64,000 bases of DNA from Alphaproteobacteria bacterium. Lineage in GTDB: Bacteria > Pseudomonadota > Alphaproteobacteria > UBA8317. Positions within the stretch are counted from its first letter, which is position 1; the number at the start of each line of letters is the position of its first letter. A program made the position numbers and the translations under genes. Shown piece by piece: positions 1-54,001 of the stretch. The stretch is taken from contig JAYPQH010000017.1 in NCBI GenBank assembly GCA_038131935.1, positions 1-64,000 of the forward strand, read 5' to 3'. Under the pieces are notes generated by a model. That model made no database searches, had not been told where the DNA came from, and worked only from the letters and a program-made list of their open reading frames with translations.

Positions 1-535
1 CATCTTGTTTGACGTTCCATGCAGACTTACGCGCGATTAAATTATCAATTCGTTCCGATAACGCCTTCAATTGGCGATCAGATAAAGTGTCATGTTTTGC
101 GATACCCAACGCAGAATTTACGACCGCGTCTAGGATACGCTCGCAAAAATCAAGTGCAGTCCTCTTTGGCGAGGTATTAGTTGTAGCAGAACTGGCCGGT
201 TAAGTAATGACGATTTCCGCTACTGCGGGAGCACGACGCGAGCGCGCGCACAGGCGTGCCAAAAAACTCTTCTATCGTCAACAAAGGGTACATAAAGGAA
301 CACAATGCTGGACGACTTAAACTAATCCTTTGTTTTAAAGGAAAAATCACCCAACACGTGGTACCCGCGGCCAGAACACATGTAAATCTCACTGCATTGT
401 TTTTATTGTGTTTTATAGATTATTGACTAGATCCGTGAGTGCCTTTAGAGCCGATTTTGAGTTCCTTATCGATGCACAAATTCAAGAACTGCGCCTGTGC
501 AAAGCGGTCCTCAAACAGCTTTGAAGACCACTTCT

Positions 536-3500
536 TTAGATATAGTCATAGACAATATTCAACTGATCCAGTGACGTTACATCCATACCCGCGAGATCTA
601 TTGTGAGGTTATTCCAAACAAGATTTCCATTGCTGATGTTGCTTTGATCGAGCTCGCTTTGCCCTGACGCTAAGTAGAACTTTAGCTTATCGTCCGAACT
701 ATAGTCACTAATGGTATCAGTCTGAGCATTTGTGCTCGACACAAATTCAAATACATCAGCGCCTGTCCCACCGATCAATGTGTCGTTTCCTTCACCACCA
801 AACAAGACATCATTCCCTGCACCACCATTCAAGGTATCATCACCTTCTGCGGCCCAAAGTATGTCGTCTCCGGCCTCCCCTTCCAAAGTAAGAGCAATTC
901 CACCCATATCGAAAGTTTTGGCGAAGTCAGGTCAACTATATCGTCACCAGCACCAGCCTTAATTGTTTCAAGATTCAGTGCACGAGCTACTGTGGTTCGA
1001 CCAAGACCGTCATCTACTGCTGTTAAACTGGAGTGCAGCCCTGAATAACTGTCATGCAAGAAAAACGCATCCCCTGTTGAGCTATCAGACAGGATGAGTG
1101 TGTCAGCATCGTCTCCTGCATCTAGCACAGTTGAATACTTGGTCTTTCCATCAAGTGCTTGCCGATCGTTCGTTTCAACATTCCAAGCTCGATAGGAAGA
1201 GCTCCATGTATCTGAACTTTGCAGCGTGATGGTATCATTACCAGCTTCCGCCTGAACCAAGTCTGCACCCTCACCGGCTGAAATATGATCCACTTGATCT
1301 GTGCCTAAGAGTAAATCTGAAGCAGGAGTCTGGCTATCATTCAGGAGCGGCAGATTGGTATTAACGCTCGGTAATGCTGTTGAAGCGATTAGATCAGCTA
1401 CTTTAAATCGATGTATTTCAACTATGTTCTCAAAACTTACAGTTGCTGTAATCGATGAGAGATCATCTATCAGACTAACATCGACAGCACCCGTTTCTAG
1501 ATTAACCAGCCCCTCTTGCGAACTTACCCACGAAATAGAGCCCCCATTCCAATTATCTGGAAGCTTAATATAGTTGGCTTTGGTAACAAAATCGTTGTAT
1601 CCTATAAGTGCATTAGCAAGCGCGTTTGGATTAACCATTGTTGCAATTATTTTATTGTCAGCGTAGCTGATGTCGCTTCCACGCGTATCGACTAAGTCAA
1701 CACGAACGAGCTCACCCTTGACGGGCAGGTTCATGCCAAACATTCTGTCACCATGAACTGCCCCGTTGGGCACTGCGAGATGTTCAGTGGACAACCCAGC
1801 ATCAGTCATGTAAGTGACACGAGCGACGAATTCAGTGTTGGAATGAATATCGCCTGAGTTTCGAACTACGTCGAAGTAGTCAGCTGGCAGGTCGCCAATG
1901 CTTTTACGAACTCTCATCGTAATATCTGGTGACGGGATCGCACCAGCACCTAAAGCGCTACCGTTGATGTCGATGAGATCTGCAGTGACATAATAGACAT
2001 CTTGGTTAAATTTATGTGGTAGACGTGCTTCGTCAAAGCCAAACGGATTTTGCGAATTTATAACTACCCACTCTTTTGTCAGGTTAAGAGTGTGAACGCT
2101 TTGATCATCTAGCGTAACTTTTATCAAGAACGCATTGGGCGTTTCGTTGTCAATCTTGATCTTGTTTCCGGGTTTATCCGGCCGCTCTTTGATGGAAATA
2201 ACGGTGTTGTAACCACGATCTGCGCTACGCTCATCTGTGTATATTAATTCGGCTAGAACAATCTCCCTTGCATCGCCAGCTACACCTGTAATTTCACCGG
2301 TATTAAAAGCTCGCTCAGGCAGATCCCATATAGAGAAGTAACCATCACCAGCGTATCCGCCGTCTTCACTATCGACACCATCAATCTCGTTCGGGGACCA
2401 TTTAACCAGCCTATCGGCGTTTGGCATCAACCGCTCAGACAATTCCCAGTCTGAGAATAAGGCAAACTGATAGTCAGAGGCCTTGCTCTGACTTCCTGCC
2501 ATTGGCGAAGTCACCATAGAAACGTTTCCAGATCCATCAATGCGATAGTTAGGAAGGTAAACGCCATTGTCCTGATCAAACGCCCAGTCGGATCCTATCA
2601 TACCGTTGTTGACGTAACTCACGACCGTTCCGTCATCTAGAGTATCAGTAATTTCAAATGAAATGTCCGGATTTACACCCGAGTTATATGGAAAACTGGC
2701 GTCAAAAGCGACGTGACCAATTCCGCCCCCATGACCAAAGAATTCGTGTTGAGTAGTAATCGTACCTACATCACCGCCGCCTTTGTAACCACCACCAACG
2801 CCACCACCTTCGCCGGCATCTATACTGGTATTGGAATACCAACCGTTGTGGGTCCAACCACCAGCAAGGAAGTTTGCACCAACCATCTTAGCCGAGTTGG
2901 CGTAGGCCCAATTAATAGTTCCACCGAATCCACCACCTCCCCAAAAGGTGTCAGCTCCTGGCAAGTTGTCCTTATCACCCGTCATAAGCATAGGTGTAGA
3001 CATAGACCCATTTGCATTAATGGCTTTTTCAACAATGTCTATTGGCCATGTAAGGAAGCGAATACCTGCAAAAGGTGACTTGGCCAAAAGCTCTTCGCCT
3101 AAGCTTGTTAAACCGCCTTCTATGCGACCGATATCTTTATCCACTCCTAATGAGGCGTGATAAAGCGACATCGTGACAACAGCACCCGCTCCTACGTCAG
3201 GAGAAATTAGTCCGCTCTCATCCTCAATCAAATCATAGCCCAGCGACTCTAAGGAGTATGGGGAACCATTTATCAGCAACTCAAATGTTACCCCAGGCGC
3301 CACCCACGCTCCGGGAACGCTGACTACATAGCTGTCATCAAGCGTATGCCCACGATCCAAATCGGCAAGATTGGTATCTGAAGGAAGATCAACACTTTTT
3401 GGCAGTAGATCAGGTCCGCTGAGCACACGCTGCCCTAACTTATTCCCCTGTGCATCGTATACAGCAACCTCGAATTCCGGTGCCGGCTGCCCCGAAGCAC

Positions 3501-6500
3501 TCGTCGCATTCACTTTAAACTGCACCCAGCGATCTGCAACCAACTTCAAGTAGGGATCATCTGGACGTTGCACGTAAGTTTGAGCAAAAAAGACATCTTC
3601 CAATACAAAATCGTCAGAGATCGGCGTTGAATAATCTGCCGCGATAGCGACATATTCAGGATCGTCAAAGCGGATTTCAGTGATGCTGACTGGGCTATCC
3701 GTGTATTCCGTATATGGAATAATTTTAATTGCTGCGGGTGTACTAGTATTCACTCCGTCGCTTACAGTGACATGGAACTGATCATACCCTTTAAACTCTT
3801 CGCCGTTCGGAACATAAGTGTATGCACCGGTCACCGAGTCCAGTGTTAACGTGCCGAAAATCGGTGCGTCCACTAATTCAAATGTTAAGTTACGGCCTTC
3901 AGGGTCTGTTGCGTCGATCTTGCCTTGAATGGCACCAAGCGTTGTTGCGCCACTACTGTCGCCATTCTCAACGATAGCGGAAACAAGCGGCTCGTAGTTG
4001 GGTAGATCTGTTAGCGTAAAGTCAACAATATCGCGACCGAGCATATCCTTCACTGTGACGAGCAAATTTTCACCTGACTCGTCGGTAGTCTGATTGAATG
4101 TTAAATCTTTAAAACGTGAATCGCCATTTGCTATGTAAAGACGCCCAAAATGACCCAAAGGAACATCAACGAAGTTATATTCGACGCCATCGGGGTCGAT
4201 CATTTTAAGATTGATACGATAAACTTTGTTCTGATCGGATTTGGGAACAGCAAACGTCGCTGAAGAAGCCGTCGCATCAGCTGAATTTTCAGCGTAAACG
4301 CCATTGTTAATTTCTATTAAGGATCCGACGACTTCAGGAGTGCGGCCTGCTTCTTTTGCAATCACAAAATCATAAAAAACTAACTCAGAGCCTGAGTCGC
4401 TCTGCACAAGTTGAATCGTATTAGAGGCTGAATCATATTGAACGTTAACAGATCGCCCTGATGGCAATCGAGAGTTAATTTCTGTTTCAATCGAACTTGC
4501 TAGCTCTGCGAGATTATTGCTCAGATTTAATTCAATATATTCCAGTGCCGCCACGTCTTGACCGTCGGCGTCTTTGATGCGTAGGAACAACGCTGCTGCT
4601 TGCTCAGCATCGGACTCGTAAAGACTTAGCTGACTACCTGGGATGTGGTTGAATTCTTCGAGAAGGTTTAACGTTTGATTATCAATAAGCGGGGTTTGGT
4701 TACCGCAGAGACTCTCAAGCGTTAGATCGTCAAATATCAGATCAGGTGATACTTCAAGAGTCGAGGAGGCGTTCGAACTAAGAAGCTCACTAACTACCGC
4801 TATGGCATCGAGTGCAGTTCCGTCAGAGGGTAAGGCTTGGCCCGACAAAACTGAGCTGGGTATTACTTCAAAAACGTCAGAACCAGGTACTTTCCATGAA
4901 ACATTGAAATAATTGAAGTCTTTACCCCACTCATCGTTACTACCGCCATCCTCATATAAAATCCAAAAGCGATAGCTTGCCGTTCTCTTCCAAATTAATG
5001 GAAATATTCTTACCATCAAACTTAGTTTTGTAACGATCGACGTAATGGCGCTGAATACCTCCGTTGACTTCGATGTAGAGGGCTAAACGGTCATCTGCTA
5101 AAACATTTAGCACGTATTGACCGCTTACTTCAGGCGTCAGAACTCCGGCCAATGCAATAATTGACTCATTAGATGCAACCGAAGCAGCGTCTAGCGTCGT
5201 GTCGATTAAATTGGTGGTTAGCTTTTCTTGTGAAACCTTGCCTTTTGTCGGCAGGGTAGGTACTTCATCATAAGCTAACGTATCAGTTGTGAAGAAAACT
5301 GGAGTCGAAGCTTTTAGAAACTCAATATCAATGAGTTTATTAAAGTCGCTAACGCCCTCAATTACAAAGCCAGAAACCGCGTTCGAAAGAGGGCCATGTG
5401 TAGATACATAATACTCAACCTGCTCAGTCGTCCCATCAGGCAGATGTCGTGTCGCAGTCATAACAGCCTTGCCTGTCGAGACTACCACCCCTTCATGACT
5501 AATCACTGTCGTTTCTGAACTACTCCAATCGAGATCACCCAAAGCATCTTGGTTTGGTAGACTCAAACGACCAGAAACAGTAATCGGTGCTAATGAAGAC
5601 AGTCCTATATCGGAATCAAGAGCCAGCAATTCGCCAGCCACATCTTGATGTAATAAGCGATTCAGCAGGTCTTCATCAAACAAATCTGTTCTAGTAGGTG
5701 TATACACCTGATTGAGAGGGCCTCCACTGGTACGAGCGGTTTCTAACCCTAATGAACTTATAAAATCTTGCATAGGCTGCTGAATGGTCGTTGTTCCAAG
5801 ATTAAGGATCACGCCGCCCTCTGTACGAGCCATCCATTCACGAATCGTGTTTATCTCTTCAATTGTTACGTTACCCTCCAGGATCACAAGGTCAACAGGC
5901 TCAGACCAGGTGCTATCTACATCCAACGCATCGGAAAGAATATCACCGGCATTAAGGGCGCCACTCACCGATGAGGGCTTACTGTAATTGAAAGAGGTAA
6001 TCTTGAGCGAATGTGCGTCATCAGCAGAGTAGTTATAGCTACGGGCGTCTTTGTAGGTAAAGTCGCTAGTCACCATCGGGTCACCCAGGTTCAGAACATA
6101 GAGGGTAGTATCGCTATCCGTTCCTCTATTGACCCCACTCGCCCAGTTCATTGAGTTGAAAACAACACGTCCCCAATCGCCATTCCCCGGATCTTGGTAC
6201 AAACCCTCTTGCATTAAATTCTGGATCGCAAATAGAGCAACACGTCCGCCTGTTTGCTGTTGAGAGAACGCAAGTAAAGCCGCCTTTATCGGTATTAAAG
6301 AGAGTGCTCGTTAACGACCAGTCATCAGCCTGTGTGTAGGATTTCGTCGATAAATAGTCATAGTTCCCGCCTCTCAAAGTGCCGTCAGAGTTGCGATCGA
6401 TCATCACCAACCCTTCATTTAGGTTGACCTCAGACACACCTTCAAACAGTTTTGTCTTCACCAAAGAGACAGAATTATCCATTGTCAGCACATGCTGTTG

Positions 6501-9500
6501 CTGTCCAACGTTAAGCGTTACAGACTGCGTTTCCTCATATTCACCATCACTTACATTCACGGAAAAGACATATTCACTTTTTTCGGAAGCTACAGCGGTT
6601 TGTTTAAGCCGGACTTCACCCGACAAAGGATCAATACTCAACAATGAAGCATCCGTTCCGCTAACAGAGTAGGACAAGCTGTCACCGTCAAGGTCTTGAG
6701 CAATAGCCTTAAAGACCACAGTGGTGAGCGGGGCATTCTCCTCGACGAAACCCGACGCATTAGGACTCAGAAAATCGGGAGCATTATCGTTTACATTCAG
6801 CACATTCAGCGTAACCTTCTGAGCGGCGTCAGTATTCACACCATCCGATGCTATAACGGTGAAACTATATGATGATTTAGACTCGTAATCCGCAGGTGTT
6901 TTGAGAGAGACTTCCCCAGTAATTGAGTCAATTTCGAACAGGCCCGCATCCTTTCCACCTAAAGAATAGTCCAGAACGCTTCCGTCGCCATCAGATGCCT
7001 GCGCTGTGACCAATATTGTTCGTAGACGAATTTTCAACCACAGTTACTGTAACCGATGGTGCTGAAAACACTGGCATAGTTTCATCAATATCATTGACCA
7101 CGACAATGACATCTTGACTCGCTACCGATGCTCCACCATCAGATACATTGACAGTAAAATAATAGCTACTCTTAACCTCGAAGTCAGGAACAGACGTTAA
7201 TCTTACCTCGCCAGTTTCTGCGTCAATGACACCCGCATCCTTATCGGTACCACTTAAGGTATAAGTGAGTAAATCCCCATCCTTATCAGATGCTGATGCA
7301 TCAAAGACTACATCAGATGACAACGAGTTCTCATCAATTTTGACGGTCTGTGTCGCAACATCAAAGGTTGGAGCATTATCGTTAAGGTTGTTTACACTCA
7401 CGGAAAGAATTTGGCTATCGCGTGGGTTTATACCGTCGGTCAAAGATAGGGTGAGGCTATAACTCTGCTTAGCCTCAAAGTCTGCGGGCTGAAGAAGACG
7501 AACTGCTCCGCGTTCACTAACAGTGAATAGTGACGCATCCGGTCCTGATAACGAATAACTAATAGTTGCATCCGAAGTAGAGTTATCGCTAAGTTCTGCT
7601 GTGTAGATAACCGGTAGTCCTGCATCGTTTTCGTCAATACTTAGGCTGACCGTTTCAGATGCGAATTGAGGGGCGTTGGAGACAGGGCTGGCCATATCTA
7701 TTGCAGACCAAGTAATCGTCAGCTTTGGGCGCAATGTTGGGTCAGTTGCCTCGAAAGAGTGTATTGGCGTACCGTCGGAGTTGGTGCTGGGAATCAATGC
7801 CCATCCGTTGTTTTGGGATTCTCCTGCAACCCACGCTTTCAAGCTATCAGTGACGTCAAAGGTTAGTGTGGCGGCGGTCGAGGAATAAGGAGCTGAATCT
7901 TCGGCATCAGTAGCTAGCGAGACATTAGAAGGCAGTAGATCAGAACCTTCCCAGGTAATTGAGTCTGACCATTCAGATACGATTGGAACCAAATCAAAAG
8001 ATGCAAACCCCTCGGTGGTTTCCAGCTGAAGGATTGCTTTAAAAATATCGGACTGATACTTAATTTGCCCCTCCGCATCACCAAAAATATCGGTAAATTT
8101 GATGAGTGGAATTGCCTTCTCATTGGGTGCCCATCGTCCATCCACGACAATACGTTGCGAATCCTCCTGTGAGCCAACAACCTCTTTGCCTATGTATGTG
8201 TCTTGGCCTGTTGTAAAAGTTGTCTCTTCACCAACCGCAGCCACAACAGTTATAGATGCCAGCCCGCCATCGGAGTTTGCAACGTTAATTGTAATCGCTT
8301 CGCTACCGCTAAAATCGGCAGAGGGTGTAAACCGAAACGCTCCGCCGCCAAGTGAAATAAGCTCACCGTTTGAAAAATTAGACGCAGGCGTGAATATTAG
8401 TGCGCCATTGCTTTCGAGGTTCCAAACATTGTCTGATAGATCAAAATCAATACTGGTTGAACTGTCTTTCACCAAAACCAGCGTTTCTTCGGGGTCAATA
8501 ACATCGATCACCGACCAATCAGGCAAGTGTGCTACAGCATCTCTATCTGCGGAAGTAATTTTGTTACCGTTCTTATCTTGGAAATTCCATGCGTCAAAGT
8601 GAGGTGACAAATCACGACCGATAATTGTAGATAGCCTCACAAAAAGCTGTGAAACCTCTTGCTGATCGTTCAGCTGATTTGAGCCAAATCCCCAAGCAAG
8701 GCTTTCAGGGCTATCGTCATAGTAGGTTCTAAAAAACGTTTTAAACGGCTCGAAGCCAAATTCCTGTATAATTTGATGATAGAAAGTCAGCTTTTGCCAA
8801 GGATCCCCAGCCTGATAGGTCAGATTGTTATCGAAAAGCGAGTCCGCTTTTTCAACACGGCGATCAGCTGTCGTATTGTAGTGATATATCCCTAGCTGGT
8901 CGTATACATAGAGCGCAAATATATTGACATTAACTTCGGCGTCGCCGCCGATGGTAAATTCAGTATCTTGGTGTAAGTGTGCAAATTCATGAAATGCGCC
9001 CCATAAACCTTCAGCTTGAAGAGTATCAAGATCTAAAAAGTTATCCGCATAATCAAGGGGGCCCTTATTTGGATACCCTGCGCTTAAGAAGCCAGCCTGC
9101 GTATCCACATCGAACGAGTACGCTTCGGGCCTCAGTCGTTCCTTACCCGAAAGGTCGTCAAGTATATCAATTACCCGACTCCACCAAGTCATAACTTCAG
9201 TGGGGTTATCGAGTGTACGCAAGATATCACTTGGTAAATACAGCTCAATATTACCAGCGGCTAAAACACCAAAGGGCGCTGGATTATCGCGAATCTCATT
9301 AACCCACTCGTCATTCGTTGTTTCACCCAGAATGAAATGTGGAGCTTCAATTGCACCATCGATTTTGAGCGTAACCGTTTGAGCTTGTGTTCCCAGTGGA
9401 ACATCAAGATAAATAAGCCCGCCAAACGCACCAGCAACTTTAATGATGGGTTCATCAATATCGTAAATTCGAGATATTGCATAAGGTGCGCGATCCCACT

Positions 9501-12372
9501 CACTTCGACCAGAGAGATCATCGTTCCAAGTTGAGAGCCTAATTTTTGCACCAATGCCCACCATCTCGCTAGGCACTTCGATATACACTAATTCACCAGG
9601 AGCAGCATAAAGTCCGGTTGTGTAGTACGTGCTCGACTGAGCCGTAACAGGGTCACGATATTGCTCGGCGACATCCAAACTAACTTCACGGATAACGCGC
9701 GCAGCACCATCTGGGATTGCACCATATAAAATTTCTGCTGTTGGATCAGCAGTCACCAACTCTGGCGCCATGATTTTGCGAGCATCGGCCTCTGCCAAGA
9801 GCGTGGCGGTTGCCGAAGAATTACTTGATGGGTTGAATGGATTTTCTGGAGTTGGCTGGATGGTCGGCAAATTTTTGACTATTAAGTCGAAGACCATCAC
9901 CTCACTAACTTCTCCAGACGTTCCGCTCGCACGAAAAGAAAAGCTATCATTCCCAACATAATTTTGGTCAGGCACGTAATACCAGTGACCTTGAGCGTCA
10001 TTTTCAAGCGATCCACGGATTGGTCCACTAACAATTTCAATCAGTGCAATCTCGCTACTCGAATCATTGGCAAGCTCATTAAATTGCTGATCTAAGCGAA
10101 CTTTTTCATTGATATTCGTCGCGCGCAGAGCAGATGCGGGTATGTCCACCGAAAGATCGTAGACAAATTCAGAGGTATAATCCGCGGCGCGGATGTTATC
10201 GCTGTTGGATACAGACAACGTGTAAGCGACAGTGCCAGCATTTAGTTCTATTAAGTCTGTTGCTTCGATAACGATTTGAGCCTGATTTGCCGACACCTCA
10301 CTGGTATATGTCTTACCATTCAGCACTAACGTAACTAGCTGCCCATCTTCAACATAGGAAGTTGTTACATTTAGAGTAGCATCGACCTTGACCTCGCTAC
10401 TGGTGAGCTCGGCGCCGAAATCAAAAGACCCCATAATCTTCGGTGTTGTATCTACAGACATTTCACTAAGGGCGCGTCCTACGAGCTTGATACCTTGGGC
10501 ACTAGTATCATATTGATAACTTGAACCTGTCAGGTAACGGTATCCGGCACCCGAATTACTCGACATGTAAAGTCGAAATTCAATCGTATCGTCAACGCGC
10601 GGCAGTGAATCAAGATTGAATTCAATCAACGTGGCCGCGTTTCCATCCAACACCTGTCGAGCGTCAATGCTAGAGGCAAAACCATCGAGACTCGACCGGA
10701 GCGTCACAAAAGTGTCGCCTGATGCAAAAGAGTAAAACGATGCGCTCAAACTAGACAGTGCTAGCTCTTCATTGGCACCCGGTGTAACCGCAAAGCTTAT
10801 ATACTCGGAGGTGTCAATCGAGCCGCGTGCATCCCACCACAGCGCCCAAACATCATCCCAGCTACCATTCCCAACGCTTGACCCACTTAATTCACCAACA
10901 GACAAAGAGGAGAATTGAGTGGTGCCTGAGATAGTGCTCCCAGCAGACTGAGAGTCAGGGTCGTAACTTGCGAGGACACCTAAGCCACTTGTGATCTCAT
11001 ACTGACCAAGGCTACCATAATCGCTGTAACCTTCACCTATCGAGCTACCTTCGCCTTCGACTTTAAGGTAGTACTCTCCAGCAGCAAGATCATCGAGGGA
11101 AATAAAAGCTGACATTGAGTCATTGATCGAACCATTTTTTACCACGTTAGATGACGAGTCATATAGCGTTGCTGAAATATCAAGATTCGGCGCGAAGCCA
11201 GTAGGCTCTACATTAAGTAGCAGCCGGCCTCCAGTGTGGGAAAATTGGAACCAGTCAGCGTCAATGTTTTGTTCAATAATACCTTGGCCAAAAAGTGTTC
11301 CGAAGCCGTCGTCGAGTATGACCAACTTGGTAGCGAAGGCGCTGGAGTCGGCATGATCATCCACGCGATATCCAAAGCCATTAATGCTACTGGTGATCAC
11401 AGCAAGATCATCTTCTTGATTATTTGCGCCGCTATAATCACCAATGCTCCATTGATTAATGCCGGGTTTCGCAATCCCCATGATCGGTATCCATGTGCCC
11501 GTTCCGGCATCATGTCCAACATAATATCCACCGTCACCGGGGCCATCATGTTGCAAGCCCATGGTGTGGCCAACTTCATGAGAAACGGCCTGAGCGATCA
11601 ATTCAGTATCAAAGTACCCCCATGAACCTTTCTCCGATACATATCCCGGGTAATCACTGTTGCTCGAAAAATAACTACCAGACCAAGCAAAACCATACCC
11701 CGGATCCCCACCGATCAGCACAGAAACGCCCCAATTGAGATCATCATCTCCAGATTTGGTTAATGCACCGCTTAAAGGTGTTTCAGTAGTTACATTAATA
11801 TTGAAGGGTGCAAAATCCTCAGCAACAGCGGCCCAAATTTGCTGAATGTTGAAGCGTTCTTGATCAGACAATGAAGCGGAATTTCCATCTAAGTCGTAGG
11901 GTGATACGTAACGACCATCTGTCCCATTGTTGTTGAAATAGTAATCACCGCCAAAAAAATTGAGATAGATAGTATGATCGGCTTCGGGTAAGGAATTTAG
12001 GGATAGAGATTCAGAGAGTGGCGCGACAAAACCATCTTGTTTGTAACCGGTGTCCCGGATAGCCAGCGAGGCAGTGCCCTGAGCAATCTCATAATTCACA
12101 GAATCCACGAGCTGACAGACGACTGTTTCCGATCCCTCTAAGCTGCCGTCCGTTAAGGGGTTAACTGTAAGAACGACCGAATCCTGCCCCGCAGCAAATT
12201 GCACCGTAGTCTGGATGACTTCGTAATCGGTCCCTGATTGGGCTGTACCGCCGAAGTTTACTGTGCAAGATAAGGCGGTGCTCAGGTCGCCTGAACGAGT
12301 TACTAGAAAAGCTCCGCTCTCGCGCCCCTCTTCAGCCAAATAATCGATCGTTTGGACGGATAAGCTCTGCAT
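536..12372 (-). CDS. Giant (~3,900 aa) RTX/T1SS-secreted multi-metallopeptidase: Calx-beta, metzincin-like peptidase + PPC, Ig/cadherin-like, M60, DNRLRE-like, cadherin x4, PA14, M66-like, RTX tail; 4 frameshifts
   Basis: Five overlapping same-strand ORFs (6991-12459, 6126-7037, 4952-6214, 829-5019, 536-907) whose domains continue across single frame changes near 7015, 6285, 4980 and 918. Motifs: [16 protein letters not shown]...[18 protein letters not shown]-terminal GGxGxD repeats. No Sec signal peptide. Likely start ATG 12372. Confidence 0.8.
749..883 (-). repeat. RTX (hemolysin-type) Ca-binding nonapeptide repeats
   Basis: [33 protein letters not shown] and GGTGADVF, followed by a ~70 aa C-terminal tail typical of T1SS substrates. 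Confidence 0.9.
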
Positions 12373-12568
12373 GGTCAATCTGCTCACAATTAATTTTTTA
12401 TAGACTTTACAATGTATTAATTTATTTTCGATCTTGCAATACATTCGCAACTGTCGCAAACATGCGACTTATCTCATGTAACGTTACTAAACTAAGTAGC
12501 TCCAATTAGTTGTTAATCACAACTACCTCTGAATACATTAGCACTCACAGCCTTCATTTATATATTGC

Positions 12569-14174
12569 TCAATCGGTTCTATTTTTTTCATCGAAATATA
12601 CATTATTCGGTACTATTGAAGTGGTTCCCGAAGAAAAAAATGGATCGATTTCGATAAAGAAATTGTCTGTATTTAGCTTGTTGTATGGGTTTCCGATGAA
12701 ATTTACCGAATCTAAAAAAACAGTTCTCAAAAAGCCTGACCATTGACGAATATCCAGTCCGCTATTGAGGAAAGTGCTTTGACTGATATTTAACTGCTCA
12801 ATACTCGAATCAATTAGCGAATTTTGAATTAAGGTATTTGTAATGGTGTTGGAATCTAATGCTTCAATTCTTAAATTGAAAATTACGCTGGAATCAATCA
12901 GCAGCGATCCATTGCTGAAAAAACTATCTACATCTACATCTAGATCTTTGATGTAACCATATCTAGAGTTTAGAGCTCCAATTGTACTGTCAGTTATATA
13001 CACTCCATTCTGAACAGTCGCTAAATTGTCTGAAGTTCCGTCCAATCGAAGCGTGCCCCAGTTTTCAAAGCGATGTCCATTCAGGTTGAGAACAGCTCCT
13101 TCCGAAATGGTGATGGTTGCATTATCCGCTAGCTGTAAATCGCCAACACATCGTATTGTTGGCCAGAATAGATTGTAAGGTCATCGTTAATTATACCTTT
13201 GAGCGACACGGTGACTGCCGGATTGCTTTCATCTAAGACTATAGTAAGAGCTTGCTGAACAGATTCCGAAACTGCACCGGAAGCATCTTCTGCAGTGACC
13301 CGCACTTCGTAGCTCCCATCTGGAACAGCGCTTCCCAAGTTTAATTCAGAACCTAATATAGTCCATACACCTTCTTCAGACGGAGTGGATGAGACTGAAG
13401 CAAGCAATGCATTGCCTTGGTAAAGCTCTAAATTCACAATCGAGGAAGTATCACACTGACCTGACCAAACCATGTCATCTAAACTCTCGGTGTAGGTGAG
13501 CTGGCTGTCGAATTCGTTAAAGCTAGGTAAAGTTACGAAATCTCTTACATCCGAGGACGGTTCGCTAGATATCTGTTCATCGGTACCAAAACCGTCGGTG
13601 TATGAAACCTGTACTGTAATAGATGAGCCAATATCATCTTGGCTGAGTTCATATGCTGAAGAAGTTGCACCTCAATTGGTAATTCATCTCGAAACCATTG
13701 ATAACTGATAGTGCCTATTCCATCCTGATCTGTGATACCTGATACATCAGCTGCGACCTCTTCACCAGCGTACAAGTCACCAACAATAGAAATGGTTCCA
13801 GTAGGCTCAACATTTACATGCGGAACAAACACATTTGGGACTAATAACGTTTCTGATATGCCGTTCAATGAAAATGCAGTAATTGATTGGTTAAACGTAG
13901 CGTCTGCGTTGTATAGAGGTTCAAATGTTAATTTGTATGAACCTGTCGGCTGCCCGTTATAGAGGCTTGAAATTATTGCAACCGATCCATTAATTACGGA
14001 TGAAGACGTTGAGGAGGACCCACCACCAACAAGCTTCGCATCCTAGTATTCAAAAGAAGAATAATTGTAGCTGAAGCGTAAGGAGAGATTATTAACTGAG
14101 CTAGTCCAATTCTCGAAATCAACAATTACTTCAATGTGACCGTTGGAGTAGGATGACGTGACTGAAGTGCCCAT
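12569..14174 (-). pseudogene. Disrupted extracellular Ig-repeat / beta-helix-like protein
   Basis: ATG 14174 is in frame with a TAG at 14043-14045 and with ORF 13545-13868. Frameshifts near 13670 and 13145 link it to ORFs 13129-13473 and 12569-13045. Contains the D-x-DG...YQW...GAT...VSYTDG Ig-like repeat. Confidence 0.65.
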
Positions 14175-26448: not shown

Positions 26449-29400
26449 ATGATATTTTTTAAGTTTTTATGGCAACGATCTCTCATACCTTCACTTGCGT
26501 TAATATTTATTGGATTTAATGATCTCGCCCAGGGCATGAACCGAGGAGATTTTTATCCAGATCAAGGATCTAGCTATAATGTAAACCTAGGAAAGGTGAA
26601 TGTAGGTGATACGTTTCGTATTCGCGGTGGTGATAAACGCTTTCGGTTCGAAAATGCCTTTTGGGCAAAGATGCAACAAGGTGATGCCTATTTATGCAAA
26701 TTCAATTCATCGTTGACTAACAATTACAAAGACAACAATGCTCCTGATGCGTGCGTTGCTGATGACTTTAACCCAGCCATAAAAATCCTTGGTGGATTTG
26801 AATGTGAAGAGGAATCGTTTTTTGGATTAACAGTTGCTCGATGGTGTCGAGGACTTGATCTTTTGGCAGAGAAGGCCAGCCCCCAAAATGTCGCAAATCT
26901 GAAAACAGCCAATAACGATCTATTAAGTTTTGAGGGACATGAATACGATATCACCTACACTGTTGGAAACAACCCAACGGCAAGCATAACCAGCTCGAGC
27001 AGGGTAGCTTTATCCCAAAACTTCACTGTTTCATCAAGTTCCACAGATCCAGATGGTGACGCTTTAACATGCCAATGGCGTCAAGTTTCTGGACCATCTG
27101 CTGAGATTATCAATCCGACCAGTTGTACGACCAACATGATTGCGCCGTCTAGCAGTGCCCTTGAAACCTTAGGTATAGGTGAGGCGAACATAAAAATTGG
27201 ACTCATTGTTAATGATGGTGTGGGAAATTCAAATGAGGTCATTCACGATATTGAGGTGTTTAACACAGCGCCAATAGCAGATGCTGGGGATAGTACTTTT
27301 TTATCTCGCGCGGGTGATGTTGTTTATCTTGATGCTTCCGGGTCTATAGATCCTGATGTGACAAATTCTGATCAGATGCTGTCTTTCAAATGGACACAAG
27401 TCACGACCCCTGTCTTGGATACGGGAGAAGTCCCCAAAACCCAGCTGAAGGCGGAGTTGTCGCTCTTGCAAATTCAAGCCAAGTGCGCCCCTCATTCATA
27501 GCGCCTCGATTAAAAAACAATCAGAAATCACAGAGAATTGGATTTCACGTACAAGTCTCAGATCCCTTTGTTGCAACAAGGCAAGCACCTCTTCAAGCGT
27601 TCGTTGACGATGATCAAGATATTGTCTTCGCAGAAATACAAAACACGCCCCCGCTTTTTGATTTCAATATCTCAGGGCTGATGAGTGATAGCCTCACCAC
27701 AGTATCAGGGAAAAAAACTTCTATTATTGCAGAAATAAGAGATCCTGACGATCAAACGCTTCAGATAAATTGGTCTGATCCAAGTTTTGGAACATTGACC
27801 ACAAATGGTGCGTTGGCGGAGTTTACCGCGCCATTACTTGCAGATTTTGAAGCATCACGGGTAACATCGATCAACGTCACCGTTGATGATACCGTTGATA
27901 CATCTACAAAATCTTTGTCAGTTGAATTGGTGAATTCGCCCCCAGTAGCAGATGCTGGTACAGACCGTTTGGTTTATCCCTCGTTCCTGACATTAGACGG
28001 AAGCGCTTCATCAGATATTGACGCACAAACGTTAAGTTATTCTTGGCAACAAATGAGCGGACCCAATGTCACCATATTGAATGGTCAAACTGCAACGCCA
28101 TCGTTTCAAACCCCAATGCTTAGTACGGGTGATGAACCAATTTTTCTGGAATTCTCTCTGGTTGTGGGAGATACGATTACATCTCGTGAGGACCGGGTTG
28201 TTGTTGTAGTACAGGCGCCAAAAAATAAAATTCCAATAGGTGATGCAGGTGACAACCAATCTGTGTCATCAGGCTCTTCTGTGATTTTGGATGGACGTGG
28301 TTCATCAGATGCAGATGGTCAGGATTTGGGTTATCTTTGGACGCAAATCTCTGGTCCATCGGTTGTTTTGTCCGATGCAACATCGATACGCCCAACCTTT
28401 ACCGCACCATTGTTGGATATTGGTGATGAGGCAGCTAGCCTCATATTCTCGTTGGTTGTAAATGATGGGTTTGAGAGTTCGCTGGCCGATGAGGTAACGG
28501 TTACGGTCAATGCACCTGCAAACAGCCTTCCATTATCAGATGCAGGTGACAACCAAACTGTACCATCAGGCTCTTCTGTGATTTTGGATGGACGTGGTTC
28601 ATCAGATGCAGATGGTCAGGATTTGGGTTATCTTTGGACGCAAATCTCTGGTCCATCGGTTGTTTTGTCCGATGCAACATCGATACGCCCAACCTTTACC
28701 GCACCATTGTTGGATATTGGTGATGAGGTAGCCAGCCTTATATTCTCGTTGGTTGTAGATGATGGAATTGATAGCTCTCTGGCAGATGTTGTTGTTGTAA
28801 CGGTGCAACCACCTGGTGTGGTTGCCCCTGTAGCAGATGCTGGTGTTCATCAATTGGTGACGTCAGGATCTCTGGTGAGCCTAGATGGTCGTGGTTCCCA
28901 AGCCACGGGTAGTGGTTCGAATTTGGTTTCTTACCGCTGGACGCAAGTTTCAGGAATGTCCGTGACATTAACTGATGTAAACCAGGTTGAGCCACAATTT
29001 GTTGCCCCCATGCTATCAGTTGGTTCGGCAAGTGAGGAATTGGTATTTGCACTGGTTGTACATGATGGTGTGTCAGATTCTCTTCCCGCAACGGTGATGG
29101 TCACCGTTGATGCGCCTGCAAACAGCCGTCCATTATCAGATGCAGGTGACAACCAAACTGTGCCATCAGGGGTTGAGGTCACGTTGAATGCTGTTGGTTC
29201 ATCTGATGCAGATGGTCAGGATTTGGGTTATCTCTGGACACAAATCTCTGGTCCATCGGTTGTGTTGTCCGATGCAACATCGATACGCCCAACCTTTACC
29301 GCACCATTGTTGGATATTGGTGATGAGGCAGCCAGCCTCATATTCTCGTTGGTTGTAAATGATGGGTTTGAGAGTTCGCTGGCCGATGAGGTAACGGTTA

Positions 29401-32400
29401 CGGTCAATGCACCTGCAAACAGCCTTCCATTATCAGATGCAGGTGACAACCAAACTGTGCCATCAGGGGTTGAGGTCACGTTGAATGCTGTTGGTTCATC
29501 TGATGCAGATGGTCAGGATTTGGGTTATCTCTGGACACAAATCTCTGGTCCATCGGTTGTTTTGTCCGATGCAACATCGATACGCCCAACCTTTACCGCA
29601 CCATTGTTGGATATTGGTGATGAGGCAGTCAGCCTCATATTCTCGTTGGTTGTGAATGATGGGTTTGAGAGTTCACTGGCCGATGAGGTGACGGTTACGG
29701 TCCATGCACCTGCAAACAGCCGTCCATTATCAGATGCAGGTGACAACCAAACTGTGCCATCAGGGCTTGAGGTCACGTTGGATGGACTGTTGGTTCATCA
29801 GATGCAGATGGTCAGGATTTGGGTTATCTTTGGACACAAATCTCTGGTCCATCGGTTGTTTTGTCCGATGCAACATCGATACGCCCAACCTTTACCGCAC
29901 CATTGTTGGATATTGGTGATGAAGCGGCCAGCCTCATATTCTCGTTGGTTGTGAATGATGGGTTTGAGAGTTCACTGGCCGATGAGGTGACGGTTACGGT
30001 CAATGCACCTGCAAACAGCCGTCCATTATCAGATGCAGGTGACAACCAATCTGTGTCATCAGGCTCTTCTGTGATCTTGGATGGAGGTGGTTCATCTGAT
30101 GCAGATGGTCAGGATTTGGGTTATCTCTGGACACAAATCTCTGGTCCATCGGTTGTTTTGTCCGATGCAACATCGATACGCCCAACCTTTACCGCACCAT
30201 TGTTGGATATTGGTGATGAGGTAGCCAGCCTTATATTCTCGTTGGTTGTAGATGATGGAATTGATAGCTCTCTGGCAGATGTTGTTGTTGTAACGGTACA
30301 ACCACCTGGTGTGGTTGCCCCTGTAGCAGATGCTGGTGTTCATCAATTGGTGACGTCAGGATCTCTGGTGAGCCTAGATGGTCGTGGTTCCCAAGCCACG
30401 GGTAGTGGTTCGAATTTGGTTTCTTACCGCTGGACGCAAGTCTCAGGAATGTCCGTGACATTAACTGATGTAAACCAGGTTGAGCCACAATTTGTTGCCC
30501 CATGCTATCAGTTGGTTCGGCAAGTGAGGAATTGGTATTTGCACTGGTTGTACATGATGGTGTGTCAGATTCTCTTCCAGCAACGGTGAAGGTCACCGTT
30601 GATGCGCCTGCAAACACTGTTCCTGTGGCGGAGGCCGGAAACAGTCAAGCTGCACTTTCTGGTATGATGGTGATCTTGGATGGAGGTGGTTCATCCGATG
30701 TTGATGGTCAGGATTTGGGTTATCTCTGGACGCAAATCTCTGGTCCATCGGTTGTGTTGTCCGATGCAACATCGATACGCCCAACCTTTACCGCACCATT
30801 GTTGGATATTGGTGATGAAGCGGCCAGCCTCATATTCTCGTTGGTTGTAAATGATGGGTTTGAGAGTTCGCTGGCCGATGAGGTAACGGTTACGGTCAAT
30901 GCACCTGCAAACAGCCTTCCATTATCAGATGCAGGTGACAACCAAACTGTGCCATCAGGGGTTGAGGTCACGTTGAATGCTGTTGGTTCATCTGATGCAG
31001 ATGGTCAGGATTTGGGTTATCTCTGGACACAAATATCTGGTCCATCGGTTGTTTTGTCCGATGCAACATCGATACGCCCAACCTTTACCGCACCATTGTT
31101 GGATATTGGTGATGAGGCAGTCAGCCTCATATTCTCGTTGGTTGTAAATGATGGGTTTGAGAGTTCACTGGCCGATGAGGTGACGGTTACGGTCCATGCA
31201 CCTGCAAACAGCCGTCCATTATCAGATGCAGGTGACAACCAATCTGTGTCATCAGGCTCTCCTGTGATTTTGGATGGACGTGGTTCATCAGATGCAGATG
31301 GTCAGGATTTGGGTTATCTTTGGACACAAATCTCTGGTCCATCGGTTGTGTTGTCCGATGCAACATCGATACGCCCAACCTTTACCGCACCGTTGTTGGA
31401 TATTGGTGATGAGGCAGCCAGCCTCATATTCTCGTTGGTTGTAAATGATGGGTTTGAGAGTTCACTGGCCGATGAGGTGACGGTTACGGTCAATGCACCT
31501 GCAAACAGCCGTCCATTATCAGATGCAGGTGACAACCAATCTGTGTCATCAGGCTCTTCTGTGATCTTGGATGGAGGTAGTTCATCTGATGCAGATGGTC
31601 AGGATTTGGGTTATCTCTGGACACAAATCTCTGGTCCATCGGTTGTTTTGTCCGATGCAACATCGATACGCCCAACCTTTACCGCACCATTGTTGGATAT
31701 TGGTGATGAGGTAGCCAGCCTTATATTCTCGTTGGTTGTAGATGATGGAATTGATAGCTCTCTGGCAGATGTTGTTGTTGTAACGGTACAACCACCTGGT
31801 GTGGTTGCCCCTGTAGCAGATGCTGGTGTTCATCAATTGGTGACGTCAGGATCTCTGGTGAGCCTAGATGGTCGTGGTTCCCAAGCCACGGGTAGTGGTT
31901 CGAATTTGGTTTCTTACCGCTGGACGCAAGTTTCAGGAATGTCCGTGACATTAACTGATGTGAACCAGGTTGAGCCACAATTTGTTGCCCCCATGCTATC
32001 AGTTGGTTCGGCAAGTGAGGAATTGGTATTTGCACTGGTTGTACATGATGGTGTGTCAGATTCTCTTCCCGCAATGGTGAAGGTCACTGTTGATGCGCCT
32101 GCAAACAGCCGTCCATTATCAGATGCAGGTCACAACCAATCTGTGTCATCAGGCTCTTCTGTGATCTTGGATGGAGGTGGTTCATCTGATGCAGATGGTC
32201 AGGATTTGGGTTATCTCTGGATGCAAATCTCTGGTCCATCGGTTGTTTTGTCCGATGCAACATCGATACGCCCAACCTTTACCGCACCATTGTTGGATAT
32301 TGGTGATGAAGCGGCCAGCCTCATATTCTCGTTGGTTGTGAATGATGGGTTTGAGAGTTCACTGGCCGATGAGGTGACGGTTACGGTCAATGCACCTGCA

Positions 32401-35400
32401 AACAGCCGTCCATTATCAGATGCAGGTGACAACCAATGAGTGCCATCAGGCTCTTCTGTGATCTTGGATGGAGGTGGTTCATCTGATGCAGATGGTCAGG
32501 ATTTGGGTTATCTTTGGACGCAAATCTCTGGTCCATCCGTTGAGATATCAAATGCCTATCATCCCCGACCGTCATTTGTATCGCCTTATCTTCAACCAGG
32601 GGAGCAACCCATTGAAATTATATTTGGTTTAACGGTCCATGATGGTTTTGAAGATTCGTCTTTGAGTACGGTAGCGATCACTGTTCAATCCCCATCTAAT
32701 ACAGTTCCGATTGCCGACGCTGGTATTGATCAAATTGTTACATCAGGCGCGTTGGTCTCTCTTGATGGTTCAGGATCAGAGGATTTTGATGGACAAGACT
32801 TGATATATAACTGGTCACAAGTTTCAGGTGTTGATGTCACACTATCGGATACACAGCTTGCTACTCCGCAGTTCATGGCGCCAATTTTGAATGTTGGCGA
32901 TTTGCCTGCAACCTTTATCTTTGCATTAAGGGTCTCGGATGGCTTTGATGAATCTGAACCAACTTTTACGACTGTACAGGTAACAGCCCCTTCTAACTCA
33001 GAACCATTCGCCTATGCAGGACAAAATCAAATTGTAACATCTGGCTCTTCGGTTACACTTGATGGTGGTGGTTCATCCGATGTTGATGGTCAGGATTTGA
33101 GTTATCTCTGGACACAAATCTCTGGTCCATCTGTTGTGTTGTCCGATGCGAGATCGGTAAGCCCAAGTTTTACCGTACCAACTTTGGATGTTTTGGACGC
33201 TGAGGTCATTTTAGAGTTTGGTTTGACTGTTTCTGATGGATTTTCCCGGTCTGGGTTGGATCGGGTCTTGGTTACAATAACCCCACCTGAAAATAATATT
33301 CCCATGGCGGATGCTGGTAGGAGTCAGCTTGTTTTATCACAGACCGTTGTATCGCTCGATGGCACAAATTCAAGTGATGGTGATAACAACCCTCTTACCT
33401 ACCAATGGAATCAATTGGCAGGGCCAGTGGTCGCATTGTCTGATGCAACATCACCAAAACCAAGTTTTTCAGCTCCATTGGTACAGCCAGGGCAATCTGG
33501 TGTTGTTCTTGAATTTGGATTGGTGGTGAATGATGGCTTTGTGGATTCGCTGGTTGATAAGGTTGTTGTCGCTGTGCAATCTCAATTCACGCCAATACCT
33601 TTTGCTGACGCAGGGAGTAACCAGCTTATTCAAAGTGGATCTCTTGTTCAGTTGGATGGCTCGAATTCATATGTATTTGGCAATGAACAAGCCAGTAAAA
33701 CCTATATTTGGACGCAGGTTTCAGGCCCAACCGTAACATTGTTGGACAACCAAGATGCAAAGCCAACATTTGTGGCACCTATCCTTGCTGTCGGCCAAGA
33801 TGATGTCACCATGGGCTTTAGGCTGGTGGTGGATGATGGGACGCGCCAATCTGCTGCTGATGATGTGGAGATCACGGTTCAAGCTCCAGAGAACAAAATA
33901 CCAACTGCAGATGCTGGTATTGATCAAATTGTCGCTGCGGGTGAGCTAATTTCATTAGATGCCACAAGGTCGCAAGATCCAGACGGGCATTCATTGACGT
34001 ACATTTGGTCTCAAATTGGTGGTCCAAATGTTGATTTGTCGGATAGCTCATCTGCACGTCCTTCCTTCGTAACACCAACGCTAAATTTTGGAGATTTGGA
34101 CCAAGAATTGCTCTTTGGTTTGTTTGTCAACGACGGCTTTGATCAATCAAGTTTGAGCATGGTGAGGGTCAAGGTAAAAGCCCCTGTGGCGAAACGCCCA
34201 ATCGCAGATGCAGGGCCTGATATGCTGGTAAAAAATAGTGAAAAGGTTCTTTTATCTGCTTCGGACTCCCGCTTAGGGTCTGGACCTGGTCCTTTAACCT
34301 ATCTGTGGACTCAGATTTCTGGTCCTAGTGTCATGTTAAATGACGTCACATCACAGGTGCCGGTATTTACAGCACCATCATTAATGCCTTCTTCACCCCA
34401 AGTGATATTACGGTTTGAGCTAAGAGTAAGCGATGGATTAACCACGTCTACCCCTGATTTGGTGACCGTTACCGTAAGAGCCGCAGATAATAATAAGCCC
34501 GTTGCTGATGCGGGGGATTCTCAATCTGTCTCTTCTAATGCGTTGGTTTTTCTCGATGGCACGGCTTCAAAAGACCGTGATGGCCATGCGCTTTCATATC
34601 ATTGGACGCAAATTTCAGGTGAAGATGTCATATTGTCAGATGCCGAAGCTGCGCGTCTTAATTTTAAAGCCCCAACTTTGGATGTGGGAGATGATCCTGT
34701 TGAATTAACTTTTGAACTGGTTGTTTTTGATGGTTTCATACATTCCGCACCAAATCAGACAAAGGTAACGGTTTTACCGCCACTGAACAGATTGCCCATC
34801 GCAGATGCCGGACAAAATCAAACTGTTGAGATGGGGAAGGTCGTTACACTAGATGGCACGGAATCATTTGACCGCGATGGACAAGATTTGTCTTACAATT
34901 GGTCGCAGGTTTCTGGCTTCCATGTTGTCTTATCGGATCACACTCTAGCGCAGCCAACCTTTACCGCTCCGATATTGACTGCTGATCAGCAAGATCAGGA
35001 GGTCGTTTTTAGACTTGTTGTGAATGATGGGGTGGGGGACTCTGGACAAAGCTTTGTTGTGGTTACAGTTCAGGGATCTTCAACAACCAATCAAATGCCT
35101 GTAGCCGATCCTGGGTTAAGCATAATTGCGAATTCTGGTGCGCTGATATCTATAGATGGGTCAGCGTCTTTTGGTTTTGGGCAAGAAGCATTGTTGTACA
35201 ATTGGTCACAGATTTCAGGCCCCACTGTGGTTTTATCAAACCCCTCCTCTGACAAACCAACCTTCGTGGCGCCATCTCTAAAACGTGATGAGTCGAATCA
35301 GTCATTATTGTTTTCACTTGTTGTACAGGACGAATTGGGCAGTTCGGAACCAAAATTTGTTGATGTGACGGTTGTAGCGCCCAGGAATAGGGTGCCTATC

Positions 35401-38400: not shown

Positions 38401-39109
38401 CGCATCAATAGTGAAGCTCTAATTGGGGTTTCCGCACAGTATGTTACAGATGAGACGCGCGTAGGTGGCTATCAAGGTGTCGTTGATTTCACGGGTCATT
38501 ATGCAAACTTATACGGATCTTACCAGGTAGGTGAGGCGCAATATTTTCAAGGGGTGCTTGGGTATGGTGCCTTAAAGATGGATATGTCGAGGTTCTCGGA
38601 GGGAAGCATATTCACAGCAAGCAGGTCAGGTGACCAATTGCAGGGGCTTTTACGTTTCACCTATCATCAACCATTAGATGAGTTTTTACTCAAGCCTTAT
38701 GGTGAAATAAAACATGTAAATGCCAGTTTAGGTTCTTATGACGAAAGAGGTGGACTGGGTGCCTTTCATGTCTACAAACAAAATATAAGAAGTACCGTTT
38801 TTGGTGTAGGTCTTGGGGTTGATCGGACCATTGATTTTGGTTCCAACCAGACTCATTCTTGGTGTGGATCTCTCTTTTGATAAAAATGTGGAAAGCCAAG
38901 ATGATCCACATGTCCATTATCATGTGGCACCGCTCAATGTTTTTTCATTCAACGAAGAGGAGAATGCTGCTACGCAATTGGCCGGTGGGGTGGGTATAAG
39001 GTATGTACATGAGGACGGAATTTCTTGGCGCTTGGGTTATGAGTATATGAGACGTGGCGAATATGAGGAAGCCCATAATCTTAAGGTGGGGTTGGGCATA
39101 TCTTTTTGA
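26449..39109 (+). CDS. Giant (~4,200 aa) autotransporter adhesin: signal peptide, Cys-containing tip, ~36 PKD/K319L-like repeats, He_PIG-like domain, beta-barrel; 4 frameshifts and 1 in-frame TGA
   Basis: Six consecutive ORFs carrying the PxADAGxxQ...LDGxxSxDxDG..L.Y.W.Q.SGP repeat; ADNLPVGL..GLISGIP (He_PIG-like); WAVWTEG...GLGADYR barrel; terminal VGLGISF. Breaks near 27433, 29787, 30500, 32437 and 38838. Confidence 0.85.
28240..32538 (+). repeat. Near-identical 297-bp (A) and 303-bp (B) tandem units forming a ~1,491-bp AAAAB super-repeat
   Basis: The B-unit marker GTGGTTGCCCCTGTAGCAGATGC recurs at 28818, 30311 and 31801; A units recur every 297 bp between them. Confidence 0.93.

Positions 39110-45723: not shown

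Positions 45724-54001
<8,278 letters not shown>

Follow-up and report, generated by a model that had tools for sequence, protein, structure and literature searches.

The window analysed here is a stretch of 64,000 nucleotides from the genome of an uncultured marine alphaproteobacterium (contig JAYPQH010000017.1 of assembly GCA_038131935.1, positions 1 to 64,000). Close to its beginning lies a giant gene on the minus strand, 12372..536, with an ATG at 12372 and a stop codon at 536-538. With four assembly indels allowed for, the gene encodes a protein of about 3,944 amino acids that carries a reprolysin-like metzincin, a Peptidase_M60 domain and a third domain modelled with the fold of the mucinase StcE, spaced by Calx-beta, cadherin and immunoglobulin (Ig)-like domains and followed by RTX repeats. 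The parts and the export route are of known kinds; the most original features are the fusion of three peptidases and a zinc motif of the form HExxGH in the StcE-fold domain.

In the assembly the gene is divided into five stop-to-stop frame pieces on the minus strand, designated A (6991-12468, 1,825 amino acids), B (6126-7043), C (4952-6310), D (829-5082, 1,417 amino acids) and E (536-931). The source gene call for piece A (P0085) has 1,793 amino acids, which places the start at the ATG at 12372, the same as in the first-pass annotation. That annotation had joined the four frame changes into one chain of about 3,900 amino acids, and the joining is borne out by contigs of four sequencing runs from four other studies (X1, X3, X6 and X8; from marine, salt-lake, estuary and marine samples) that were aligned to positions 300-12700.

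At the first break (7009/7010) the window is 2 nucleotides short. The 2 nucleotides are present in all of the contig depth in X1 (29.4/29.4), X3 (118/118) and X6 (9.55/9.55), and in X8 they are carried by 9.89 of 18.6 of the depth only. The window has 1 nucleotide too many at the second break (6274/6276), omitted in all depth of all four runs, and again at the third (4977/4979), where it is omitted in X1 (47.6/47.6), X3 (118/118), X8 (9.31/9.31) and those contigs of X6 that cover the site. The fourth break (911/916) has 2 nucleotides too many; these are omitted in all depth of X1, X6 and X8, and X3 does not cover the site. The only other indel reported from the contigs over 300-12700 is at 12581, upstream of the gene. 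The codon phases of the pieces (coordinate modulo 3) are 0 for A, 2 for B, 1 for C, 0 for D and 1 for E, so that each indel size joins adjoining frames, and every indel site falls in a stretch where both neighbouring frames are open. The net indel is -2 nucleotides and the natural open reading frame (ORF) has about 11,832 nucleotides, or 3,944 codons.

A single X3 contig of 6,685 nucleotides covers 1609-8293 with no gaps other than those of the breaks, joining the StcE-fold unit to the cadherins and the glycan-binding-type module CBM96. It overlaps the next unitig, which bears the M60 domain, at equal depth; the three X3 unitigs (1609-8293, 8264-10824 and 10826-12401) have equal depth (113-118) and overlap by 30 nucleotides or abut. 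In local BLAST, the alignments of two relatives, P0005 and P0010, are collinear across the break between C and D. The essential gene rpoC (49811-54001, plus strand) is broken in the same manner, into three or more frame pieces (TIGR02386 positions 1-353, 423-996 and 959-1143), while rpoB directly ahead of it is intact. Because rpoC and the ATP-binding cassette (ABC) gene of the type I secretion system (T1SS) are also split, the assembly itself generates frameshifts. That the four breaks are assembly errors in a single ORF of about 3,944 amino acids is therefore well supported, both by the contigs of the other studies, which restore the frame, and by the like breakage of rpoC. With 1-2 nucleotide indels this frequent, other broken genes of the assembly are not to be taken as pseudogenes.

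Domain structure

The metzincin is the first of the three peptidase domains from the N-terminus (11434..12018). Its motif of 11 residues at 11548-11580, located there already in the first-pass annotation, extends to the 12 residues of the adamalysin type HExxHxxGxxHD at 11545-11580, and the Met-turn PIMG (11476-11487) lies 21 residues past the third histidine of the motif. Reprolysin_3 (PF13582) passes its cut-off narrowly (23.3 bits, cut-off 22.4) and Reprolysin_5 (PF13688) stays below (23.7, cut-off 27). A PPC-type domain follows at 11053..11262, matched over the whole profile (PF04151, positions 1-70 of 70). Metzincin and PPC domain together are 45% identical over 356 amino acids to a module at the N-terminus of P0001 that passes both Reprolysin_5 and Reprolysin_3, and the PPC domain is aligned in this comparison. 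A search of PDB sequences with the metzincin gave ADAMTS13 alone (E 0.21), with the motifs aligned. The order proposed earlier, a metzincin-like site with its Met-turn and then a PPC domain, thus agrees with these results. P0001, from a metagenome-assembled genome (MAG) of Gimesia, is a further giant protein, also uncharacterised, in which peptidase modules are combined: its 4,738 amino acids hold two metzincin-type sites, one reprolysin-like (215-295) and one matrixin-like (HELGH at about 4685).

The second peptidase (8587..9663) consists of an M60-like_N domain (9361-9663; 52.9 bits, cut-off 23) and a catalytic Peptidase_M60 domain (8587-9357). PF13402 scores 150.8 bits against a cut-off of 25.8 (E 7e-44) in the Pfam search and 156.3 bits in the genome search. 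The motif HEFAH is at 8977-8991 and the codon of the downstream glutamate, the third ligand, at 8935-8937. When M60 and AcfD chains were compared, both the HExxH motif and this glutamate aligned with the same residues of the solved chain 4FCA. The M60 assignment is beyond doubt on sequence grounds, and HEFAH and the downstream glutamate lie where they had been reported. The unit shares M60-like_N, Peptidase_M60, the HExxH motif and the downstream glutamate with BT4244, ZmpB and the lipoproteins of the SslE/AcfD type. It differs from the known M60 O-glycopeptidases in that its chain has an RTX tail for type I secretion and two further peptidase domains.

A DNRLRE/CBM96-type module (7711..8061) adjoins the M60 unit and scores 49 bits with the NCBIfam model NF033679 (cut-off 34). 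According to parts of PMC3267712, M60-like domains are usually partnered by glycan-binding modules. The window protein resembles that family in having such a module beside M60; the kind of module is different, DNRLRE/CBM96 here and CBM32, CBM51 or BACON in the family as described in those parts.

The third peptidase domain (2323..3675) has an N-terminal beta-sandwich and a catalytic part, with a zinc motif of 12 residues at 2713-2748 and SPMAG near 2494-2505. An AlphaFold2 model based on an alignment of 30 sequences reached a predicted local distance difference test score (pLDDT) of 76.9 and a predicted template-modelling score of 0.79. In Foldseek, the model of 2203-3675 gave StcE (3UJZ) as the sole match at E <= 1e-3 (E 1.5e-15, 498 columns, template-modelling scores 0.54/0.45); the runner-up was a generic Ig domain (1.5e-3). 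A phmmer search of PDB sequences with the domain gave no match at E <= 1.

The zinc motif reads HExxGHxxGxxH (hexapeptide HEFFGH), one residue more than HExxHxxGxxH. In the alignment the window domain and its nearest relatives have HE-x-x-G-H-G-x-G-x-x-H and canonical M66 has HE-x-G-H-x-x-x-x-x-H. An exhaustive search of 1.84 billion representatives gave 80 relatives at E <= 1e-3, 24 at 1e-10 and 10 at 1e-30. Among the 80, HExxGH occurs in 15, HExGH in 41 and another HExxH in two; the 22 with none are mostly short fragments. Each of the residues H310, E311, G314, H315 and H321 is kept by 90% or more of the 30 sequences in the alignment. Conservation of the ligands across representatives less than 50% identical to each other argues that the HExxGH site is functional and under selection.

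Peptidase_M66 (PF10462) is passed by 13 of 20 relatives scanned, these being the better-scoring long ones. For the window domain the best stretch gives 17.8 bits, or 25 when stretches in the same frame are summed. The domain thus appears to be a divergent relative of M66, and it is filed here as M66-like and not as a proven member, because the defining motif is not present as written. Of the earlier description as an M66/StcE-TagA-like domain, the StcE fold and the positions of the H-motif and SPMAG stood; the family profile stayed below its cut-off on the window domain except when stretches of the frame were summed, and the motif is HExxGH and not HExxH.

TagA of Vibrio cholerae is an M66 relative alongside StcE, and StcE is exported by the type II system. 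With StcE of enterohaemorrhagic Escherichia coli (MEROPS M66) the window domain shares the beta-sandwich and zincin part, three histidines and one glutamate, and a Met-containing turn. It differs in its low identity (15%), its longer zinc motif and its place within an RTX protein of 3,944 amino acids. The hosts differ as well, an enteric pathogen for StcE and a marine free-living or host-associated bacterium for the window protein. A parallel for the longer motif is found in family M49 (dipeptidyl peptidase III), which according to parts of PMC5805324 and PMC9820243 contains both HEXXGH and HEXXH enzymes, the same pair of hexapeptide and pentapeptide variants as in the M66-like clade. M49 is unrelated in fold and family and is a cytosolic exopeptidase, so that it is a precedent only for the longer motif being able to bind zinc.

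The sequence between and around the peptidases consists largely of beta-rich modules. A Calx-beta domain (12055..12360; PF03160, 28.1 bits, cut-off 27) stands at the N-terminus. Between the PPC and M60 domains lie a beta-rich region (10099..11001) with no Pfam match at E <= 0.01, collinear with residues 2-269 of P0086, and an Ig-like domain of Big_9/Cadherin_5 type (9895..10092). Four cadherin or Ig-like spacers (6513..7644) contain the first break. They are followed by an alpha/beta domain and beta-rich sequence (5276..6503) to which no family was assigned, collinear with P0005 and P0010 and containing the second break, a PA14-like domain (4783..5272) cut by the third break, and a Big_9 Ig-like domain (3721..3936) ahead of the M66-like domain. 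In all there are about ten spacer domains, with several copies of Cadherin and Big_9.

After the M66-like domain comes a beta-rich domain (1348..2085) that is conserved in relatives (32-36% identity to P0005, P0009, P0010 and P0012) and matched by aBig_2 only at E 0.047. The RTX nonapeptide repeats (750..1317; PF00353, 25.4 bits in piece D and 68.3 bits in piece E) contain the fourth break and comprise three GGxGxD motifs and looser copies. The C-terminal tail past the repeats (539..749) is, from its position, presumed to be an uncleaved T1SS signal. The spacers and RTX tail named in the first-pass annotation were all confirmed by Pfam matches. Its glycan-binding-type modules fared unevenly: DNRLRE is over the NCBIfam cut-off, and PA14 is weak in the window and clear in collinear relatives. 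The part of P0005 aligned to the PA14-like region is a PA14 domain (E 3.9e-20), and P0010 and P0012 have PA14 beside the M66-like domain.

The model of piece C is poor (pLDDT 46.3). Its best VIA match, residues 127-296 of the O-glycoprotease IMPa (Z 7.4, root-mean-square deviation 4.0, 153 aligned), is within the range of chance and is a lead only, and the best score in the ESM Atlas for this piece, 0.76, is likewise under the level that counts as more than a lead.

Relatives and export

Local BLAST of the five pieces against the collected proteins divided the chain into three collinear blocks that match different proteins. Residues 151-493 of piece A match the metzincin-PPC modules of P0001 and P0003. 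Residues 392-1801 match P0086 and 781-1588 match P0087, covering the PPC-like, Ig, M60 and CBM96 parts. Pieces C, D and E align with entire proteins (P0005, P0010, P0009, P0012 and P0013) that cover the alpha/beta, PA14, Ig, M66-like and beta domains, to which P0009 and P0012 add RTX repeats. The uncharacterised single-module relatives are 30-48% identical to the window parts with which they are collinear. P0088 (M60 and RTX, 1,451 amino acids), P0009/P0143 (M66-like and RTX, about 1,810 amino acids) and P0005/P0010 (PA14 and M66-like) are each collinear with one part of the window protein and have one peptidase family, and P0001 is collinear with the metzincin-PPC part at its N-terminus. The nearest named relative, P0008/P0142 of Litorivicinus lipolyticus (WP_170272568.1), is M66-like, in Ig-repeat giants of 4,130-4,212 amino acids. 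As the modules are found singly in other large secreted proteins, the gene has the look of three cassettes joined by fusion.

Neither M60 nor a separate metzincin was found in 20 M66-like relatives, or in four further cluster members or longer forms. Among the listed Pfam domains of 45 M60 relatives, seven of which have incomplete lists, there was no M66 (PF10462) or metzincin family. Several relatives come from contigs that extend little beyond the gene, and these proteins may be truncated, while P0142 (complete genome), P0010, P0007, P0013 and P0009/P0143 have contigs with room to spare. A search for full-length relatives with residues 150-1400 of piece A against proteins of 3,139-5,000 amino acids gave four matches, none with M60, and piece C had no match among proteins of 792-2,260 amino acids. 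In metagenome contigs from JGI scanned with piece C, 199 pattern stretches were found and none was confirmed; no intact orthologue was obtained as protein or locus. The literature search, in the parts of texts that it covered, gave no text pairing Peptidase_M60 with Peptidase_M66 and no description of a chain with two such domains; matches to the string M60 in an RTX review (PMC3034196) were accession and DOI strings. The triple combination thus appears to be absent elsewhere in the databases searched, within these length windows and with relatives cut at contig ends, in keeping with the earlier statement that no known protein combines the three catalytic families.

Metagenomes of marine, estuary and salt-lake origin from 11 studies contain the gene at about 99% identity (20 holder rows, of which three are labelled by organism, none of them among the aligned runs, and the others as metagenomes). 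The 45 M60 relatives are mostly from free-living environmental bacteria, including MAGs of Planctomycetota, Verrucomicrobiota and Acidobacteriota. The host lineage is isolated, with one other genome in the genus and further relatives in other families of the class. A search for the M66-like domain through 400 further genomes of the class, with 308 genera scored including that of the source genome, found it in none. The catalytic part of M60 is in none of 40 relative genomes, two of which matched the Ig-like end of the query only (401-491). As the M66-like domain was found in none of the 400, the gene looks acquired and foreign to its lineage.

The genome (2.48 Mb, 67 contigs, 89.9% complete) has genes for type I secretion, as expected from the earlier reading of the RTX tail as the mark of a T1SS substrate. 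On contig C33 (7046-10022) an LssB-type ABC transporter gene is split into two frame pieces (TIGR03375, 329.5 and 333.1 bits, positions 129-433 and 433-694), and an intact HlyD adaptor gene (TIGR01843, 287.7 bits, cut-off 208.65) follows directly; a TolC-like gene is on contig C42. Secretion of the giant protein by this system would follow from its RTX tail. Beyond the HlyD gene, C33 continues with 5'-nucleotidase-like and choice-of-anchor I genes.

Two kinds of T1SS substrates offer comparisons. Serralysins are RTX metzincins exported by this route, of about 50 kDa and with one catalytic domain. They share with the window protein the C-terminal nonapeptide repeats, the export route and the metzincin, and differ in having a single catalytic domain. 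MARTX toxins also carry several activities on one chain exported by a T1SS, and their intracellular effectors are freed by autoprocessing by a cysteine protease. Unlike them, the window protein has no recognised autoprocessing domain or MARTX repeats: the cysteine protease domain and the A, B and C repeats were absent from the Pfam matches of the five pieces at E <= 0.01.

Possible function

Taken together, the results favour the view that a single gene at this locus encodes a multi-protease of about 3,944 amino acids, which would be exported by type I secretion and act on mucin-type O-glycoproteins outside the cell. The chain would leave the cell unfolded, C-terminus first, through the LssB-type ABC transporter, HlyD and the TolC-like channel. 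Outside, calcium would fold the RTX beta-roll and stiffen the Calx-beta, cadherin and Ig spacers. Along the resulting rod would stand the metzincin with its PPC domain, M60 beside DNRLRE/CBM96, and the StcE-fold domain preceded by the PA14-like module, its zinc site formed by HExxGH, then GxxH and the Met-containing turn. The protein would then probably dock on heavily O-glycosylated mucin-type proteins of animal or algal mucus or of marine gels, where three enzymes held close together would cut different types of bonds. All three modules keep the full sets of metal-binding and catalytic residues.

Such a substrate is suggested by two families with characterised members that cleave beside O-glycans, taken together with the glycan-binding modules. 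As described in parts of PMC7518263, the M60 enzymes BT4244 and ZmpB and the M66 enzyme StcE cleave O-glycopeptides and mucins as endopeptidases. Degradation of extracellular mucin-type glycoproteins is thus inferred to be the most likely role. Since the M60 relatives come mostly from free-living bacteria, the protein may in nature act on something other than animal mucin.

Several results weigh against this reading. A number of domain scores are low in the window: PPC (24.9 bits, cut-off 25.9) and the Pfam CBM96 profile (PF24517, 21.3, cut-off 26) are slightly below, PA14 (PF07691) reaches 16.1 against 24 in the first half of the domain and over profile positions 9-77 only, with no match for the second half alone, and Peptidase_M66 gives 18.9 bits on fragment D against 20.6, on a domain that lacks the HExxHxxGxxH motif by which M66 is defined. 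About 1,300 amino acids of the chain have no assigned family. The TolC-like protein is under its cut-off (TIGR01844, 208.4 bits, cut-off 225.15), and the T1SS genes are on other contigs than the giant gene. The whole gene is not covered by any one public contig; X3 tiles it with three unitigs. In X1, X6 and X8 the summed contig depth is about tenfold lower over the metzincin end (10236-12700) than over the rest, and the RTX end (300-1541) has low depth in X3. There may be strains with alternative gene ends; contig depth is too weak to rank the parts of the gene, and this is a lead only.

Four frame breaks in the window, a contig depth that in other samples is not the same at the ends as in the middle, and protein searches without any full-length or fragment-spanning relative could also mean that there is not one functional gene here: this strain might have a pseudogene, or adjoining genes might have been assembled into a chimera. 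This is very improbable, as the contigs of four other studies have no breaks, rpoC is broken alike, and the X3 contig runs from the M66-like unit through the cadherins to CBM96 and overlaps the M60 unitig at equal depth. If the protein is intact, it could still be an RTX adhesin on the cell surface, with the peptidase-like modules serving mainly as ligand-binding heads. In its RTX tail and its Calx-beta, cadherin and Ig spacers it does resemble large RTX adhesins, and the nearest M66-like relatives (P0008 and P0142) are Ig-repeat giants. Against this, all three modules have complete catalytic and metal-binding residues, and the spacers number only ten or so, well short of a long tandem array. 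A search of the 89.9% complete genome for PF06035, the family of LapG-type proteases, gave no match, and Pfam recognised no retention module at the N-terminus. An adhesin is for these reasons improbable.

An unlikely explanation, though less so than an adhesin, is that the protein degrades extracellular proteins in general for nutrients and that the glycan-type modules only anchor it to particles. General endopeptidases make up the broad family of which the metzincin is a member, the M60 relatives are free-living and not from animal mucosa, and the gene is held in marine, estuary and salt-lake metagenomes. Against this, the characterised M60 and M66 enzymes require O-glycans beside the cut (parts of PMC7518263), and modules of the CBM96/DNRLRE and PA14 types accompany M60 and M66-like units in the relatives too. 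The reading as an extracellular protease of O-glycosylated proteins is accordingly preferred.

A bolder version of the preferred reading is tentative and, taken as a whole, doubtful. A widespread uncultured marine bacterium would have fused the three cassettes into a single-chain mucinase cocktail, in which the two O-glycoprotease families and the general metzincin act processively on one mucin-type polymer. The uncharacterised HExxGH clade would bind zinc and be a second lineage of zincins to do so with the longer motif after M49, and the ends of the gene may be swapped between strains.

Many polysaccharide-degrading enzymes are multi-catalytic chains; proteases of this build are rare. Three distinct zinc peptidases on one chain would offer a natural test of proximity synergy on dense glycoproteins, and two of the three are related to families that serve as mucin-specific research reagents. 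The HExxGH variant of the StcE-fold domain poses a concrete question of zinc-site chemistry and may yield O-glycoproteases of new specificity. With the spread of the gene through marine, estuary and salt-lake samples, the activity could play a part in how mucus and gel particles are recycled at sea.

Flanks and neighbouring genes

The gene had been proposed in the first-pass annotation to be cargo of an island, and the flanks do not support this. Its G+C content (0.44-0.48) lies within that of the contigs (0.38-0.49), the neighbours at 15.4-24.8 kb are housekeeping genes (MoaA-like, racemase and methionyl-tRNA synthetase), and no integrase was found in 13 neighbouring ORFs scanned. The other flank is the contig end, 535 nucleotides from the gene. 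In the genome of the same genus the contig ends about 125 nucleotides past the NAD-kinase gene, so that synteny is uninformative. No tRNA or Rfam family was found at 1-700 and no terminator-like site at 200-600. One promoter-like site was found at 12300-12700, on the plus strand, against 1.6 expected.

At 328-414, many contigs of all four runs match for about 85 nucleotides only and then diverge into unrelated sequence. This is a short element common to other places or organisms.

Directly upstream of the giant gene, 12569-14042 (minus strand) holds a gene in three frames (165, 180 and 203 amino acids), with a weak Big_13 match, a beta-helix-like end and no other family; one X3 contig has a 1-nucleotide insertion at 12581. 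A second giant gene lies at 27390-38880 on the plus strand, in four frame pieces of 854, 256, 645 and 2,146 amino acids. It has many cadherin-type repeats, and its matches to NF038112 are confined to the repeat part of that model. The pieces probably belong to a single surface protein of about 3,900 amino acids, interrupted by the same kind of assembly break.

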